This document shows, one piece after another, positions 2,501-44,745 of a DNA stretch of 64,000 nt (positions are counted from its first letter, which is position 1; each line of letters begins with the position of its first letter). The position numbers and the translations under genes were made by a program. Source of the stretch: a virus (lineage: Duplodnaviria; Caudoviricetes); IMG/VR virus record IMGVR_UViG_3300028833_000058; one strand, written 5' to 3'. Below the pieces are notes generated by a model. It was not told the DNA's origin. It ran no database searches and saw only the letters and a list, made by a program, of their open reading frames with translations.

Positions 2501-4657
2501 TCACGCTATCTCCCCACATACGTCTTCTGTTGTTATTATAAAGTCTAAGATAAAATCTTTCGCTTGTGTATCATATTTTATCCATAAGTGCGGTTTTTTG
2601 TCATTAGCGTATAACATAGTATCCACTAACTTTGGTCTTAAATGAGCTTTGATGAAACCAGGAAGACCACGAGCACCCCTAATTGGGTCATATTGGTCTA
2701 CACAAAATTTGTGAATTTCTTCATCACTCATTTGAATACCTATCTTATCTTTATAACATTCACTAAGGTTGGTTATCTCTCTTCTAACAATTTTTTCGAT
2801 GGTATCCATACCTAAACGTTTAAAATGAAAGATATTCTCACGACCATTAAATCTATTGAGTAATTCAGACCTATAAGTGTTTGTTAATTCTTCATTAGCT
2901 CTTTCTTTAGCTTCTTCGTCTGTCAATGACATATCAAGGTAATACTTTTGACCAATGTTTGAAGTCATTATAATAATCGACTCCGAAAAGTCAACAGTAC
3001 GACCAATGTTATCTGTCAATCTACCATCAGAAAGTATCTGCAAGAATATATTGAACACATCTGGGTGTGCTTTTTCAATTTCATCAAACAGGTAGATACC
3101 AACTGGATTTTTACGTACTGTGTTAGTTAAAATACCACCACACTCGAATCCCTCATAGCCTGGAGGAGCACCAATTAGTTTAGCTACAGCATGTTTCTCC
3201 ATATATTCTGACATATCAAAACGAATAAGTGTTCTTTCATCACCGAATAAATATTTTGCAAGAGATTTTGACATCTGTGTTTTACCACAACCACTTGGGC
3301 CAAGAAATAGAAAACTTGCTGCTGGACCAGAATCTCTCATTGTATCAATTTTAGCAACTTTAATGGCATCTGCTACTTTTTGAACAATATCATCTTGACC
3401 GTAAATATCTTGTAAGAGGTCATCTTTAAGACTTATAATTGTTTCAATCTCATTTTCATTTAACTTCAAAGCAGATATACCAGAAATCTTACTAAACGAC
3501 TCTATAAGTGAATCTTTATCTAAAGCTAAATTACTGTTAATTCCGTTTACAAGAATCTTATATTGTTTTTTGTTTTCCTCTAATTGAGTATTAATTGCTT
3601 TAATCTGTTGTTTCAACCCTGCTACTTCTTTGGAATCGAAACCAGCTTTTGCAAGAGCTTTAAAGTTAGCAATCTCTCTCGGTGTTATTCCTTCACCTTC
3701 TGTTTCTGCTTTTTCTTTGGCTTTTTCTAATTCAGATGTATATTGAAGACGTAGAATTTCAGCTTCAGTTTGTTGTTTAGCTAATTTTTGAATTTGTATC
3801 TTTGTATCCATCCAATCTGCAAAGCTGTCATTATAAACTTTCTGTAATTCAGCTTTTTTATTTTCATCATTACATTCTGCTATCTCATCTCTTAGTTTCT
3901 TTAGCAGAGGATGCTCTTTGTTAGCAGATTGTTTATAACTTGATAACGCTCTATCTAATAAAGAGATTGTACGAGCAGGTTGTGTAGCTCCTAAGCCAAA
4001 ATCTTCACGATATTTTGTAGTTAAATAGACAGCTTCTTTTATAGCTTCATCGGTAATCTTGATACCATGATAATCCACTAATTCTTTACTTGCTTCTTTA
4101 ACAACTTCTTCTAACTTTTGACCAGATAATTCTTTTACATCATATAAGGTATAAAAATCATGAATCCTGTTGTTTGCACTATATATGTTATTTAAGTGGT
4201 CGTCATTCACTTCCATGATAACTTGAAACAAATTAGATTTATCAGCATTGTTTAAAGTATTAACAAAGTGCATATTACCAGAGTTCTTCGCACCTTCTAA
4301 GAAGTTATAAGCGTCAAGAATAACTAACACAGCGTTTGGTGTTTTTTCAAGGTTTTTTATGACTTGTTGAAAATCTTTGTTAATTTCTTGACTATCACCA
4401 CTTGCAAACAAGTTATCCACATCCAGCACAAAAAATTGCTTGGAAAGAATATCAAAAGAGGTGTCTTCATTTTCTTTAGATTGTTGTAGACCAACGATTA
4501 AAGAAGTTACTCCAACACCTCTTGGTCCCGTGATTAGTAAAGAGTTGTTATTTTTTCTACATAAAATAGAAGAAATACGTTTTAAATCTAATTCCCTGTT
4601 TACAAGTTTGAAATTAGGGAACGACTTTAAAAATTCTTGACTTGAGATAATTTTCAT
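2501..4657 (-). CDS. clpB: ClpA/ClpB-family AAA+ ATPase lacking N-domain, NBD1 degenerate, NBD2 intact
   Basis: NBD2: FLFLGPSGCGKT, RFDMSEYMEKH, LIGAPPGYEG, LFDEIEKAHPDVFNIFLQILSDGRLTD, MTSNIG, GAR; long coiled-coil middle region; NBD1 Walker A reads GPRGVGVT. Confidence 0.85.
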   Translation of the reverse strand: MKIISSQEFLKSFPNFKLVNRELDLKRISSILCRKNNNSLLITGPRGVGVTSLIVGLQQSKENEDTSFDILSKQFFVLDVDNLFASGDSQEINKDFQQVIKNLEKTPNAVLVILDAYNFLEGAKNSGNMHFVNTLNNADKSNLFQVIMEVNDDHLNNIYSANNRIHDFYTLYDVKELSGQKLEEVVKEASKELVDYHGIKITDEAIKEAVYLTTKYREDFGLGATQPARTISLLDRALSSYKQSANKEHPLLKKLRDEIAECNDENKKAELQKVYNDSFADWMDTKIQIQKLAKQQTEAEILRLQYTSELEKAKEKAETEGEGITPREIANFKALAKAGFDSKEVAGLKQQIKAINTQLEENKKQYKILVNGINSNLALDKDSLIESFSKISGISALKLNENEIETIISLKDDLLQDIYGQDDIVQKVADAIKVAKIDTMRDSGPAASFLFLGPSGCGKTQMSKSLAKYLFGDERTLIRFDMSEYMEKHAVAKLIGAPPGYEGFECGGILTNTVRKNPVGIYLFDEIEKAHPDVFNIFLQILSDGRLTDNIGRTVDFSESIIIMTSNIGQKYYLDMSLTDEEAKERANEELTNTYRSELLNRFNGRENIFHFKRLGMDTIEKIVRREITNLSECYKDKIGIQMSDEEIHKFCVDQYDPIRGARGLPGFIKAHLRPKLVDTMLYANDKKPHLWIKYDTQAKDFILDFIITTEDVCGEIA

Positions 4658-9600: not shown

Positions 9601-9653
9601 TCTTATAGTAGCACAATCTAACAGAAAAGTAAAGTCAAATTTTACAATTAATT
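9601..9653 (-). promoter_or_regulatory. type copy of phage early promoter
   Basis: minus strand AATTAATTGTAAAATTTGAC-TTTACT-17 nt-TACTAT; the plus-strand core AGTAAAGT or a close variant recurs in intergenic gaps near 8312, 12229, 16551, 28423, 31848, 35116, 35536, 37631, 38662, 40192, 46386, 46968, 48093, 50634, 51728, 53922, 54772. Confidence 0.85.
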
Positions 9654-16574: not shown

Positions 16575-17045
16575 TTAATGGTTCATAATTCCATCTTCGT
16601 AAAGTTTTTTAACTTCTTCAAGTCTTTTCAATTGTGATTCAGATAACTCCATGTTGAAAGTTAATCCTAATCTATTTAATTCTGATTCCAACTCTTTTAG
16701 ACATTTTTGGCCAAACCATGGAAGACGCATAAACTTTACTGGTGAATAACGAACAATATCCCCTAGTAACACATTTTCGGTTCCAAATTTCTTTTTAAGA
16801 CAATTAAAACATCTAACACTCAAATTAATTCTGTCTATGACACGTTCATAATATATTTCACGGTCAGCTAATTCCCATCTGTCGCTACTTAAATCATCAC
16901 CTGGAACATTTGTGTGACAACCGTTTGGATAATCGTCATTGACAATTTCAAAATGGCCTTCATATAGCCTAAAATTTTCACCTGGTACACCACGAGTTAT
17001 CATATACCCTTTTCTCATCCATTCTAATGCTTGCTCAAAATACAT
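16575..17045 (-). CDS. fusion: Tad2/DUF2829-like N-domain plus RNA polymerase alpha C-terminal domain
   Basis: MYFEQALEWMRKGYMITRG...DDLSSDRWEL, then INLSVRCFNCLKK...LGDIV...MRLPWFGQKCLKELESELNRLGLTFNM (alpha-CTD pattern LSVRSxNCLK...GDLV...NFGxKSLxEI...GL). Confidence 0.75.
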   Translation of the reverse strand: MYFEQALEWMRKGYMITRGVPGENFRLYEGHFEIVNDDYPNGCHTNVPGDDLSSDRWELADREIYYERVIDRINLSVRCFNCLKKKFGTENVLLGDIVRYSPVKFMRLPWFGQKCLKELESELNRLGLTFNMELSESQLKRLEEVKKLYEDGIMNH

Positions 17046-40633: not shown

Positions 40634-41004
40634 ATCAACTTACTCCTATTGCTAAAGATTAACTCTAGTCATCTTCATAACAGAAATAACTCTAATAGTA
40701 AAATCTAAAAAACTTATCCACATTTAATTCAAAAACATAAAGAAAATTTCATAACTAAATAGTTCTACAAAATAGTTCTACATAAATACATAACAATGAA
40801 CATTATGACTATTCTGGAGTTCTTTGGCTAATCTGTGACAGATATTCACGAAACAGCCGTTATATATAAGAGAAACATAAACATTATATATAAAAAACCA
40901 AAAAAGAGCGGATACATAGGGACTTTATGAGAAATAGACAGCTTGTTTAGAACCTATTGCTCAAAATAAACGTTAAAATATATAATATAAAGGAAAATAA
41001 ACTA

Positions 41005-42591
41005 ATGTCTATATTAACAAAGAAAATTGAGAATGAAGGTTTGGCTGCTAAAGCTCGTTCTCAGAAAATCAATGCAGGTTTAGCTCATGCAGCTACTGTA
41101 TTGCACGAATCCAGCTTAGGTCGTAGATGCCCTAACTTGGTAAAAATGATTGAATCAGAAGACCGTGACGCTCGTTATCAAGCTGCTACTATGGTTCAAT
41201 TAATGGAAAACACAGCTGATTACGTTCTCAATCAAGACCACGTACAGTTATTCACAGAAGCTGACGCTTATGGTAACACTGCTTCTACTTCTGCTGTATC
41301 ATTGTTAAGTCCTGGTGTAGCCAGCTTAACTCCTCGTGTTGTCGACATAGTTAACGTCTTCTACCCAATGATGATTGCAAATTATATTGCGGATATTCAA
41401 GCACTTGACAGACAATCTGGTCAAATTTTCGTAATTAAGACTCGTTACTCTCAAGACCAAGGTGAAGGTGCTACTGAAATTAAAGCTGGTGACATCGTAT
41501 TTGAAAAACCGACTGATGGTAACTACTCTTCTGAAATGATGAGCTGGGAAGCTAAAGAAATCGGTACTGGTACAATCACTTTAGCTGCTCGTTCTGATTT
41601 AGCTGCTGACGCTACTGTTAAAATCCGTGCTGGTTCTTTCATCGTTCGTATTGAAGGTAAAGAAGTTGCTCGTGACTATGGTAACGGTGCTGCTGATACT
41701 GAAGGCAAGAACGATGGTAACTATGGCATCTTCGGTCGTGGCGTTTCTGGTCACATCAATGCTCAAGATGGTTCTGGTGAAATTGTATTCGATACAACAA
41801 TCTTTGCTAGTGCTATTGCAGACGGTGTTAAAGTATCTCTCGAAGCTGCTTATGATACAGAAACTGACGTTGATTTGATTCGTAAGATTCAATTCGATAT
41901 TCCTAACCAACCGATTTTAGCTAAAGAACACCCATTAATGAGTTCTTACTCTGTTGCTGCTGGTTTGGTAATGAACGCTCACTTAGCTATTGATACTGAT
42001 GAATTGATTGCTAACCAATTAGCTGGTACAATTCGTTGGGAAAGAGATTTAACTTTGATTAAATTGTTAAATGACAGTGCTAAGTTAAATACTTCATTAA
42101 CATTCGACTGCTCTGGTAACGGTGAAAACTTAACATTACAACAAAGATATAGCTCTTATTCTACAGTTATCTCTTCAGCTCGTGGTTTAATCCAAGAGGC
42201 TGCTGGTCGTGGTACTGTTGAATGGATGGTTGTAAGTGCTACTCAGGGTCTTCCGATTGTAGAACAAATCGAAGGCTTCAAGGCTGCTCCTGAATCTAAA
42301 AAGCCAATTGGTCCGTACTTAGCTGGTACATTACGTGATGGCACAATCAGTGTTATCGCTGTTCCTTATACAGCTACATTACCTGCTGACCAAGTAATCT
42401 TTGGTTTCAAAGGTTTCCAACTTGGTGATAGTTCTGTAGTTTTGGCTGAGTGGGTTCCGTTGTACTTCACTCCAACCTTCCAAGCTCCGAACTTGAAGAA
42501 CCATCGTGGTGCTTTATCTTTCTACGATTTGTTCTTGAACAAGCCAGAATATATGGTTAAAGGTGCTATTGCTAACTTCAACCAACAGTAA
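41005..42591 (+). CDS. major capsid protein, T4 gp23-like
   Basis: ATG 41005 after AAGGAAA; LMEN...LFTE-A propeptide-like region, P..IA..IADIQAL...SGQIF.I.TRY, YAPYVPL-like AEWVPLY; strongly biased codon usage; tandem late-type motifs upstream; strong terminator. Confidence 0.88.
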   Translation: MSILTKKIENEGLAAKARSQKINAGLAHAATVLHESSLGRRCPNLVKMIESEDRDARYQAATMVQLMENTADYVLNQDHVQLFTEADAYGNTASTSAVSLLSPGVASLTPRVVDIVNVFYPMMIANYIADIQALDRQSGQIFVIKTRYSQDQGEGATEIKAGDIVFEKPTDGNYSSEMMSWEAKEIGTGTITLAARSDLAADATVKIRAGSFIVRIEGKEVARDYGNGAADTEGKNDGNYGIFGRGVSGHINAQDGSGEIVFDTTIFASAIADGVKVSLEAAYDTETDVDLIRKIQFDIPNQPILAKEHPLMSSYSVAAGLVMNAHLAIDTDELIANQLAGTIRWERDLTLIKLLNDSAKLNTSLTFDCSGNGENLTLQQRYSSYSTVISSARGLIQEAAGRGTVEWMVVSATQGLPIVEQIEGFKAAPESKKPIGPYLAGTLRDGTISVIAVPYTATLPADQVIFGFKGFQLGDSSVVLAEWVPLYFTPTFQAPNLKNHRGALSFYDLFLNKPEYMVKGAIANFNQQ

Positions 42592-42621
42592 TCTGAGCTT
42601 TAGAGCTTAAAGTACTAAAAA

Positions 42622-42657
42622 GTATCCCCTGAGTTATTTCTTGGGGGATATTTTTTT
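42622..42657 (+). terminator. intrinsic terminator of capsid gene
   Basis: GTATCCCCTGAG/CTTGGGGGATAT hairpin plus T tract. Confidence 0.85.
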
Positions 42658-42692
42658 GCTTGACATTATTTTTTATTTGTGATAATTATAAG

Positions 42693-42829
42693 CTAACATA
42701 AATGATATGGAAAGAAGATTTGATATAAATCATATATCATGATAGGTCTCCTTTTTTTGAGTTAGTTATGTTATTTGTAGTTTTAGAGGTAGTCCTGTGT
42801 ATGTCTTTATTATACAGGACTATTTTTTT
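42693..42829 (+). ncRNA. candidate sRNA 1
   Basis: TTGACA (42660-65)-17 nt-TAATTA promoter; 12-bp terminator stem 42790-42822 plus T7. Confidence 0.5.
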
Positions 42830-42940
42830 ATTCAATATATACGGTAAAACTTCTGAATGTTATCTTAGAGCATACTTTAAGAACGAAGCTTGTGGGTTAA
42901 GCTCGCTCTTAAATATACCCTATTTATATATGAAAGTGAG

Positions 42941-43037
42941 AGAGAGGTACCAGACTCTCTTGAGCAGCGGACTAAACTGCTACGTAAATGGTCAAACTAA
43001 TATTGTAACTGTGAAAGGGAGTTTTCAGTACCTCTCT
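42941..43037. ncRNA. candidate structured RNA (long closing helix plus inner hairpin)
   Basis: AGAGAGGTAC/GTACCTCTCT, AGACTCTCTT/AAGGGAGTTT (G-U pairs favour plus strand), AGCAG/CTGCT. Confidence 0.5.
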
Positions 43038-43141
43038 GCGATTCTGATGTATATATTAATATATCTTTAAAGTAAAGACATTTTTAAAAATTAATTGTAA
43101 AAAAGTACTTGACAATGATTATTTATATCTGTATAACTAAG

Positions 43142-43236
43142 CCCATAGTACATTTGGTTTAGTTGTTATTATAGTTGTTGGTGTTATTGACAGTGATGCT
43201 CATCTGATTTCCCATCCAATCAGATGAGTTTTTTTT
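43142..43236 (+). ncRNA. candidate sRNA 2 (GU-rich)
   Basis: AATTAATTGTAA upstream element plus TTGACA (43109-14)-17 nt-TATAAC; perfect 11-bp terminator 43199-43228 plus T8; no ORF. Confidence 0.6.
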
Positions 43237-43379
43237 GTCTAAAATTGAAGGATGAAAAGTGTGTATTTCCTATTAATAGAAAACACTAACTAAGTCATTG
43301 ATTTTACGTAATTCTCAAAATTTTGTGTTTCAATCGTTTTAAGAGCTATTTTTTGTCTAAAATGGTGTTAGATAGGCAT

Positions 43380-43498
43380 AAAAAAGCTCTGATTCCCCAT
43401 TAGGCATAATCAGAGCTTCATTTGATAACTGTTGTAAAAGAAATTGCCCCGTGCGCTGAAACAAACAAGGCAATCGATATACTTAACCAGTATAACAC
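43380..43498 (-). ncRNA. candidate sRNA 3 (convergent with sRNA 2)
   Basis: TTGACA (43531-26)-16 nt-TATAAA with TG; internal hairpin ATTGCCTTG/CGGGGCAAT; 11-bp terminator 43384-43418 plus T tract. Confidence 0.55.
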
Positions 43499-43644
43499 GA
43501 ATGTTTATATCATGTTTTTTTCATTTGTCAAGTAGTTTTTCATCAATGGTGCTCATAAAAGTAGTTCTATATAACAGATGAATTAACTGCGCTGGTTCAT
43601 CCGAATAGTTCTTATAAGCGTGTTTTAAATAAGGAATGATTGTT

Positions 43645-44022
43645 ATGGAAAGAATCGTTAAAGAATGTATCGCTGCTGGTATAGTAGTATCTGAAAAAGA
43701 CGAAGCAGGTAAACTCGTAAAAGAAATTGCTGCTACTGTTTATGAAGAGAAAATTATCAACGATGAATCTGCTTCTAGTTCTGCCGCTGAAGGTAAAAAA
43801 TCTGTTGTATTAAAATACAAAGATATGGCTTATGCAGAAGATATTGTTGCTCCTCTTGGCTTCGATGAAATTGCTGGTGACGCTGAATTAGTAGTTCCTG
43901 GTATCGGTGGCCATAAAGACGTTACATTAGCTGCACCTGTTGTTGTTAAATATTCAAAGACTAAATCTTTTGAACGTAATGGTAACACAGTTGTATTCGC
44001 TTCTTTACGTTATGATATGTAA
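43645..44022 (+). CDS. highly expressed late protein, possible capsid decoration/virion protein
   Basis: two late-type motifs upstream, AAGGA RBS, capsid-like codon bias, own terminator. Confidence 0.5.
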   Translation: MERIVKECIAAGIVVSEKDEAGKLVKEIAATVYEEKIINDESASSSAAEGKKSVVLKYKDMAYAEDIVAPLGFDEIAGDAELVVPGIGGHKDVTLAAPVVVKYSKTKSFERNGNTVVFASLRYDM

Positions 44023-44057
44023 TTAAACATATCACCCTTACTGTTTATTTAAATTGG

Positions 44058-44088
44058 ATACCCTCAGTCGAAAAACTGAGGGTATTTT
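44058..44088 (+). terminator. intrinsic terminator
   Basis: ATACCCTCAGT-CGAAAA-ACTGAGGGTAT plus T run. Confidence 0.85.
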
Positions 44089-44745
44089 GGTGCGAAGGAG
44101 AATATGAAGGAGAACAGAACGTGCTCTAAGGCGATTTAAAGACCCTACAGAGCATATCAAATGTTTTAAGCTAGGGGTGTAGCTTAAACAATAAATATAC
44201 GCTCTGTACTATGTGATTTTAGTCCTGTGTGTTTAATCAATCCAAACTGGGTTTACTATAGCTCCACACATTCTTTTCTTTATTTCTCTACATGCATCTG
44301 TACAATCACCAAAATATTGGTAAGGTTCAGTAAGAATCGGTCTACCATTTATTTCAACGTACCACATTGTTTTAACTCCTTTTATAAAATTATCTCCTTG
44401 TAACATCTTGATAAATAAGTACATCAAGATTTGGTCTTGGTTCAATATGAATACCCATTTGTCTTGGGTCACTAATTCTTCTAACTTTTCTCATTGTCTT
44501 TCTCCTTTAACTTACGTTACGAGCTACCAAAGTTCTAAAGAGCTCGGTCTTTGATATTCTTTTTATGGCACCAGCTTTAAGAAGTTTTTTCTTTTCAGCT
44601 TCACCAATGTTATAGTTACCTAATACATAACCAGTAGATAATTTATATCCCTTTATAAACGTACCTGCTTTAAAAGGTAAGGTATTCTTTACAGGTTTTT
44701 TAACTTCAAAATACTCATATTTAATCATTGTCTTTCTCCTTTCAT

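Follow-up and report, generated by a model that had tools for sequence, protein, structure and literature searches.

A candidate small RNA gene cluster in a variable site behind the major capsid gene of an uncultured large phage

The oop RNA of phage lambda typifies RNAs that run directly from a promoter to a terminator, and in the tRNA region of phage T4 the stable RNAs C and D adjoin the homing endonuclease segB. Small RNAs (sRNAs) of virulent phages, including those of PAK_P3/PAK_P4, phiKZ, PA5oct and others, have been mapped by transcriptomics and reviewed, and P22 sar is listed among phage sRNAs in the same review (PMC12197685). Homing endonuclease genes are in turn known to cluster near capsid genes, where gene content is unstable and remnants are left behind (PMC10055350). 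Here we analyze a gap without credible genes (positions 42592–43644) behind the major capsid gene in a 64,000-nucleotide stretch of phage DNA, hereafter called the window (IMG/VR record IMGVR_UViG_3300028833_000058; Duplodnaviria, Caudoviricetes). Phage-encoded sRNAs and capsid-side endonuclease islands are both already known, and the RNAs predicted here match no described family. On balance, we favor a reading wherein the gap holds four independently transcribed small noncoding RNA genes, of which three (U2, U3 and Hx) would be genuine, expressed early and active in trans.

A preliminary description of the window had proposed three TTGACA promoter-to-terminator units and a helical element of ~100 nt within about 1 kb that lacks a credible long open reading frame (ORF). 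These features were recovered as described, with U1 and U2 on the plus strand, U3 on the minus strand and the helix at 42938–43037. U1, U2 and U3 each have their own promoter and their own intrinsic terminator and hold no ORF, and the element that we call Hx has a promoter and lacks an evident terminator. The parts of the gap are as follows.

42660–42835, plus strand: U1, with a TTGACA promoter, an irregular hairpin of ~80 nt and a 17-bp terminator followed by a U run (sequence, folding).
42866–42921, minus strand: a 24-bp hairpin of two inverted TTTAAGAGCGAGCT copies (RNAalifold).
42938–43037, minus strand: the Hx helix, in which an outer stem of 10 bp and an inner stem of 7 bp accompany a single 7-bp hairpin; its loops are invariant and two patches are hypervariable.
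43048–43096, minus strand: the early-type promoter of Hx, with a UP-like element (43096 to 43085), 8 nt, TTTACT (43076 to 43071), 17 nt and TATACA (43053 to 43048).
43089–43237, plus strand: U2, with AATTAATTGTAA, 8 nt, TTGACA, 17 nt and TATAAC, and a predicted RNA of ~95 nt (sequence, identity).
43238–43377, no strand assigned: a conserved spacer flanked by the convergent terminators of U2 and U3.
43378–43531, minus strand: U3, with TTGACA, 16 nt and an extended −10, and a predicted RNA of ~120 nt (folding, strand test, covariation).

This 1 kb contains four of the window's ~63 copies of TTGACA, where a rough estimate gives an expectation of ~0.5. All four elements fold better than their shuffled versions, with z-scores of −3.9 (U1), −2.6 (U2), −4.0 (U3) and −4.3 (helix).

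Because all four promoters look readable by a host sigma-70/sigma-A polymerase, the RNAs would probably be made early. U1 (~140 nt) would start directly after the capsid terminator. U2 and Hx (at least 180 nt) would start from a divergent pair built on one palindromic UP-like core, the same element that precedes phage early genes, and U3 would converge on U2 across a spacer that is probably not transcribed. We propose that the RNAs act in trans, wherein U2 could use its single-stranded G/U-rich tract to pair with C/A-rich sites or to bind a protein, and Hx and U3 could bind a partner as folded RNAs. Situated in an insertion hotspot for endonuclease genes, the locus evolves by the gain, loss and replacement of whole units.

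Like the sRNAs mapped in large lytic phages, which mostly lack a known function, these units are short, noncoding and equipped with their own phage promoters. The mapped RNAs, however, were found by RNA-seq and many are antisense (PMC12197685), whereas the present units lie in a cluster between genes and have been recognized solely from sequence. With lambda oop and P22 sar they share the format of a self-contained RNA of 70–100 nt that is made by host polymerase and ends at an intrinsic terminator, but those two RNAs are cis antisense to a neighboring gene, and U2, U3 and Hx overlap no gene. T4 RNAs C and D offer a parallel of another kind, a cluster of small stable RNAs beside free-standing homing endonucleases in a large virulent phage. 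Unlike that cluster, the present one includes no tRNA genes, lies behind a capsid gene and provides a promoter and a terminator per unit.

The relatives used for comparison are metagenomic contigs of ~230 kb, and one contig that encodes an identical downstream protein measures 246 kb. Distant relatives comprise 13 IMG/VR and 57 metagenome contigs whose capsid proteins are 52–93% identical over the best matched segment, the intermediate relatives L023, L075 and L076 are syntenic with the window, and the close relatives were recovered via the downstream protein. L146 and L147 are collinear with the window at 97.8% identity, L148–L153 are 92–96% identical, and L155–L159 are 80–86% identical over 42865–44100. 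Conservation of signals is expressed as mean pairwise identity by segment among 11 relatives, and the neutral yardstick is the adjacent gene, whose third codon positions are 0.87 identical across these same genomes.

Comparison of these sequences establishes the promoter and terminator anatomy and its selective upkeep, along with the strand-specific pairing of U3 and the conservation of the U2 tract and the Hx scaffold. Within the close clade, conservation extends over a block that starts at the 24-bp hairpin, takes in Hx, U2 and the spacer, and ends with U3. The −35 and −10 hexamers (0.80–1.00) and the terminators (0.89–0.91) are maintained, whereas the promoter spacers vary (0.71–0.77), which is the pattern of working promoters. 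A lack of conservation, which the preliminary description had named as an argument against small RNA genes, is confined to U1 and to the distant relatives and is not seen within the close clade. BLAST searches with the gap against the 13 IMG/VR relatives and five whole relatives returned only noise, the gap cannot be aligned with most of the distant relatives, and MAFFT produced no alignment of its left half with L023, L075 and L076.

The promoter of U2 belongs to a recognizable class. Seven exact copies of the 12-mer AATTAATTGTAA are present in the window, six of which lie 8 nt upstream of a TTTACT −35 element with a 17-nt spacer and a TATAAT-like box behind it, and these six precede minus-strand genes with a ribosome-binding site. 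The seventh copy is separated from the U2 −35 by the same 8 nt, and U2 therefore has a regular member of the early promoter class, as the preliminary description had supposed when it noted the upstream element. The same architecture recurs at ~20 sites in the window, for example at 9653, 28448, 46412, 48119, 50660 and 51754 (all minus strand), wherein the 8-nt stretch often ends in TTGAC and the region downstream comprises a leader rich in C and A and a strong ribosome-binding site. The AATTAATT core is its own reverse complement and is common to the U2 and Hx promoters. The C-terminal domain of RNA polymerase alpha, which binds UP elements, is recognized (PF03118, E 3.8e-10) in a 156-aa protein encoded at 16575–17045 (minus strand), making this protein a candidate partner of the AATTAATTGTAA element.

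From its TTGACA (43109), 17-nt spacer and TATAAC (43132), U2 is predicted to yield an RNA that consists of an unstructured G/U-rich tract (43154–43190) and a 12-bp terminator (43198–43229) followed by U8. The −35 (1.00), −10 (0.91) and terminator (0.91) are better conserved than the promoter spacer (0.73) or the RNA body (0.65), whose low value mainly reflects allele replacement in L155, L156 and L158. The tract itself matches at 32 of 34 positions in L159, the most divergent of the close relatives, compared with 0.74 at third codon positions (P=0.003). A U8 tail and an unstructured tract are features of Hfq-type sRNAs, and the U2 arrangement of an unstructured G/U-rich stretch ahead of a terminator with a long U tail resembles GcvB-like, G/U-seed and Hfq-dependent sRNAs. 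Unlike those RNAs, U2 shows no sequence or Rfam relation to them, and no C/A-rich target stands out in the window. The claim that U1 and U2 share a GU-rich tract did not hold up: the local alignment score of 21 compares with 16.5 +/- 2.8 for dinucleotide shuffles, 81 of 1000 shuffles reach it, and the tract of U1 is predicted to be paired within a hairpin rather than available as a free seed.

Two resemblances link U2 with U3. Around the −35 elements (43100–43115 and 43525–43540), 15 of 16 nt are alike as an inverted repeat, which suggests that one promoter was derived from the other. The terminators (43203–43215 and 43388–43400) have a 13-nt stretch in common on the same DNA strand, which would allow 12 nt of pairing between the two RNAs. 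Judged by eye, the stretch persists in L155 and L159 but not in L156, and it probably reflects duplication of a hairpin.

U3 shows pairing at the RNA level that is specific to one strand. Its TTGACA (43531 to 43526), 16-nt spacer and extended −10 (TGnTATAAA at 43504) precede an RNA with hairpin 1 (43494–43477), hairpin 2 (43475–43442), a U-rich linker and a 12-bp terminator (43418 to 43384) followed by U6. When the close relatives are read as minus-strand RNA, 85 of 88 cells are paired in hairpin 2 and 116 of 119 in the terminator, compared with 57 of 88 and 99 of 119 when they are read as plus-strand RNA. The structure as a whole pairs in 96.7% of cells, compared with 36–64% for slid controls. 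Covariation, which the preliminary description had put forward as a check, is 0.233 for U3 versus 0.188 in shuffles, with only 2 of 500 shuffles reaching the observed value. Identity is 0.92 for the −35 and 0.90 for the extended −10, and 0.77 for the promoter spacer, 0.56 for hairpin 1 and 0.63 for hairpin 2. The terminator is also present in L023, L075 and L076, where it carries a single compensatory change, plus a single G-U pair that can form only in minus-strand RNA. When IMG/VR was scanned for the pattern of this terminator loop, 67 matches were returned, none of which had the flanking stem, and all are attributed to chance. On the plus strand, 14 nt of the U3 body (43432–43445) are identical to part of the downstream gene (43717–43730), a borderline match with an E of 0.014 among four queries.

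The helix is best read as a fourth unit, Hx, divergent from U2, because it has a minus-strand promoter and because numerous G-U pairs in both the helix and the 24-bp hairpin correspond to A-C mismatches on the plus strand. The predicted start, near 43041, is directly before the helix. The 24-bp hairpin has a mean identity of 0.98 in eight relatives, includes three invariant G-U pairs that form only on the minus strand, and is probably the 3′ part of the Hx RNA. The conserved block stops right after this hairpin, which marks its 3′ end, and no clear terminator for Hx was found. In the promoter, the −35 block (0.95) and the TATACA −10 (0.80) are better conserved than the spacer (0.71). The helix itself is 0.84–0.88 identical and nearly invariant, with 94.8% of cells paired in eight relatives, and one compensatory change in the outer stem of L159 is visible by eye where the automatic alignment misplaces it. 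Pairing of the two hypervariable patches with each other was unsupported by RNAalifold analysis. The TTTAAGAGCGAGCT sequence recurs in the gap, in direct or inverted orientation, in several relatives (window 42876–42913 and 43338–43347; L023:2918–2945 and 3512–3555) and is rare elsewhere. Either a protein site or a mobile palindrome could account for it.

The locus also changes by whole units. L023, L075 and L076 have in common with the window only the U3 terminator, a 26-nt patch of the spacer and the −35 block of the Hx promoter, and they carry their own small minus-strand units at the same places. U4 is a further small unit (~72 nt), in which a small hairpin and a 13-bp terminator follow a TTGACA promoter, and it is not present in the window.

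L023:3205–3320 and L155:1637–1750, minus strand: U4, which is also present in L075 and L076.

Across L023, L075, L076 and L155, which represent two subclades, the −35 of U4 is invariant, its body and terminator are near-invariant and its promoter spacer is variable. The fact that U4 is built in the same way suggests that the locus carries a family of such modules. We give slightly better than even credence to the view that the units are lineage-specific phage sRNA genes in a locus of fast turnover.

Several observations weigh against this view. A search of Rfam 15 on both strands of 42000–44200 at E<=10, including HEARO, GcvB, ctRNAs and ribozymes, found no family at its gathering threshold, a check also named in the preliminary description; the top match, at 25.5 bits against a threshold of 90, was a microRNA model on the capsid terminator. 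Most RNA bodies (0.56–0.65) change faster than synonymous sites (0.87). U3 is entirely absent from L149 and L150 and is thus dispensable there. Hx is missing in L075 and replaced by a different hairpin in L023, its covariance model (R1) has matches in the close clade alone and none beyond, and its covariation is nil (115 of 500 shuffles reach the observed value), the near invariance of Hx making covariation uninformative. In an ungapped scan of the 64-kb window, the U2 tract, the U1 tract, the U3 linker and the Hx loop have no more complementary sites than shuffled seeds. U1 can be read as a relic, and the phage is known only from assemblies. The preliminary description had interpreted the units as base-pairing regulators or as sponges for a host RNA-binding protein such as Hfq. 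Of that interpretation, the sRNA reading of U2, U3 and Hx is supported by the comparative evidence, U1 is tied to an endonuclease cassette, and no target emerged in the window. RNAduplex runs against 129 translation start regions were set aside: computed duplex energies were inflated, and only U1 exceeded mononucleotide shuffles, a signal caused by the purine and pyrimidine arms of its hairpin. An IscB/TnpB guide RNA (omega RNA, HEARO) was rejected given that there is neither an adjoining nuclease gene nor an Rfam match.

The gap is bounded on both sides by genes of a late type, as listed here.

41005–42591, plus strand: the late gene for the major capsid protein (T4 gp23-type), the left border (PHROG major head protein, E 1.8e-23).
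42615–42658, no strand assigned: the terminator hairpin of the capsid gene, with T runs on both sides (sequence; conserved in relatives).
43563–44022, plus strand: a late-type promoter motif (43563), a conserved leader and the gene for a 125-aa protein, the right border (homologues, identity).

The capsid gene is called as a 528-aa PF07068 Gp23 protein on the contig with the identical downstream protein, and AGTTCTA late-type motifs are found near it at 40761 and 40774. This motif precedes the capsid gene, the 125-aa gene and other probable late genes. The T runs that flank the capsid hairpin on both sides make it probable that this terminator is bidirectional. The 125-aa protein starts at 43645, its homologues beginning at the fourth codon of the listed ORF, its leader is 0.96 identical, and it matches nothing in Pfam or PHROG. 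Most relatives have a 44-aa gene called right after it, and the corresponding ORF in the window (44038–44230, minus strand) is short and readily overlooked. In a crude gene map of the window, the gap is the sole one longer than ~325 nt. Its only ORF of note (100 aa, 42768–43070) lacks matches in Pfam and PHROG and is frameshifted by 2-nt indels in close relatives, in agreement with the preliminary description, and a search for tRNAs and tmRNAs found none in the gap. The phage DNA is low in GC (~32%), and nearly all genes of the window are on the minus strand except for a plus-strand island at 40.7–44.4 kb that comprises the capsid and 125-aa genes. No match to the window DNA was found among 50,697 phage records, the capsid protein is at most 33% identical to that of any isolate, and no relative of the 125-aa protein was found in IMG/VR.

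Although we consider it unlikely, the units might be scars of cassette turnover, wherein homing endonucleases and other mobile genes, each bringing its own promoter and terminator, repeatedly enter and leave, and deletions strand promoter-terminator stubs that are transcribed but useless. The region of U1 (42660–42860) is the variable part of the locus and is replaced in L155 (by a short ORF and U4), in L156 and L157 (by a NUMOD3 endonuclease) and in L159, and L149 and L151 have an extra U1-like paralog. Behind the capsid gene, distant relatives carry varied cargo that is mostly free-standing homing endonucleases, including PHROG 3339 proteins in L076, L003 and L012, a GIY-YIG enzyme in L011 and a NUMOD3-type enzyme in L005; the cargo of L001 has a weak NinG-like match. 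Different endonuclease genes occupy this exact site at the following coordinates.

L076:659–2467, L003:2581–3909, L012:7697–9058, L011:7907–9868 and L156:42–1739 (L157 likewise): endonuclease genes behind the capsid gene.

U1 begins with a TTGACA −35 at 42660, followed by a spacer of 17–18 nt and a weak −10, and has its terminator at ~42785–42827. Its promoter matches that of the L076 endonuclease gene (602 aa, PHROG 3339, E 4.6e-76) at 13 of 14 positions, a 19-nt stretch around the ATG matches at 18 of 19, and similarity extends over the first eight codons. U1 is most aptly described as a sequence derived from an endonuclease cassette; given this shared promoter and these shared codons, it is either a remnant of such a cassette or its landing pad, although an RNA may still be made from it. 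Its signals and structure are conserved above neutral only in the closest relatives. A CU-rich motif that resembles an anti-Shine-Dalgarno sequence and the G/U tract are predicted to be 3′ arms of one long hairpin, with an unpaired probability of 0.11–0.19 for the motif, and changes in L150 and L151 preserve the pairing. Capsid-adjacent endonuclease clusters with different families per relative and remnants have been described (PMC10055350; PMC2988022); in contrast to those islands, the window has no endonuclease gene at the site, only the promoter and few codons in U1, and the adjoining conserved block is noncoding.

The presence or absence of U3 and U1-like units among close relatives, partial duplications of terminator tails and promoters, and the low conservation of RNA bodies also suit the scar hypothesis. 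Relics should decay evenly, however, yet hexamers and terminators remain intact where spacers have changed. In addition, G-U intermediates maintain the pairing of the U3 stems on only a single strand, conservation of both the U2 tract and the body of U4 clearly exceeds the neutral level, and blastx of the gap against all ORFs of related loci found nothing within the units and no residual coding fragments, U2, U3 and Hx included.

It is rather less probable that the element under selection is DNA, with the spacer being a replication origin or a site of protein assembly, and with flanking transcripts that prime, activate or insulate it. The spacer contains two exact 15-nt direct repeats (43231–43245 and 43349–43363, 118 nt apart) and a near-palindromic patch centered on ACGT (43289–43315), which occur nowhere else in the window and which rank with the most conserved sequences of the locus (identity 0.93–0.97 in the repeats, 0.94 in the patch). 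No RNA fold is predicted for the spacer (z-score +0.6), and it is retained where U3 is deleted. These conserved, unfolded motifs, kept without U3, are the main support for a function at the DNA level. Moreover, 26 nt of the patch (43289–43314) are the only interior sequence kept in L023, L075 and L076, and terminators face the spacer from both sides. The origins of T7 and T4 likewise combine promoters with AT-rich DNA. For an origin, however, the features amount to two repeats and one near-palindrome rather than a DnaA-box-like or multi-copy iteron array, gene orientation is not switched at the site, minus-strand genes being present on both sides, and the skew profile is confounded by the local late-gene island. 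Convergent transcription would disfavor melting, and the RNA-level pairing of U3 would be left unexplained. A reading of the second 15-nt repeat as a Cas12a-like repeat was also rejected, because its loop is 7 nt long, its closing pair is A-U and no other copy of it folds.

A highly improbable alternative is transcriptional housekeeping, wherein the signals buffer the strongly expressed late capsid island against early minus-strand transcription and the RNAs are by-products. The late island is indeed embedded in minus-strand genes, and the signals for initiation and termination appear to be under stronger selection than the RNA sequence. Insulation would nevertheless call for terminators and not for strong consensus promoters that fire at them, and it would not account for the constraint on the U2 tract, the Hx loops and the stem structure of U3. 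That the units encode micro-proteins is scarcely credible: a 15-codon ORF on the minus strand of U1 (42746 to 42699) has a strong ribosome-binding site, the complement of the anti-Shine-Dalgarno-like motif, 6 nt before its ATG, and U3 contains a 38-codon TTG ORF, yet in L149 and L151 the 15-codon ORF is altered in both sequence and length, no start codon follows the motif where it is retained in the U1 paralog, the other ORFs lack ribosome-binding sites, and indels disrupt the frames.

Returning to sRNA genes as the preferred explanation, the pattern of recent change permits a further speculation. L146 is 98% identical to the window at synonymous sites and differs at 38 of 1081 nt, but seven of these differences fall within the 35 nt of U3 hairpin 2 (P=4e-5, relative to the background rate) and five within the two interior patches of Hx (P=1e-3, likewise). 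The changes in U3 hairpin 2 preserve every pair when read as minus-strand RNA. This hypervariability points to patch-wise recombination or to diversifying selection, and such bursts are the pattern expected of an arms race. It is conceivable, though quite doubtful, that the locus is a modular store of sRNAs that changes by whole-unit swaps and patch bursts, whose RNAs would serve as decoys or guides against host defenses or competing phages, possibly in connection with endonuclease traffic.

A role is known for few of the small RNAs of virulent phages, and comparative evidence is available for almost none of them. This locus adds four candidates, from a clade of uncultured phages (~230–250 kb), with mapped promoters and terminators, strand assignments and natural presence and absence variants. 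Their value would lie in this comparative support, which is rare for phage sRNA candidates, and in their link to a site of fast turnover. For sequence-only sRNA calls beside capsid genes more generally, the locus indicates that a check against endonuclease turnover is needed, since such turnover explains part of the pattern here.

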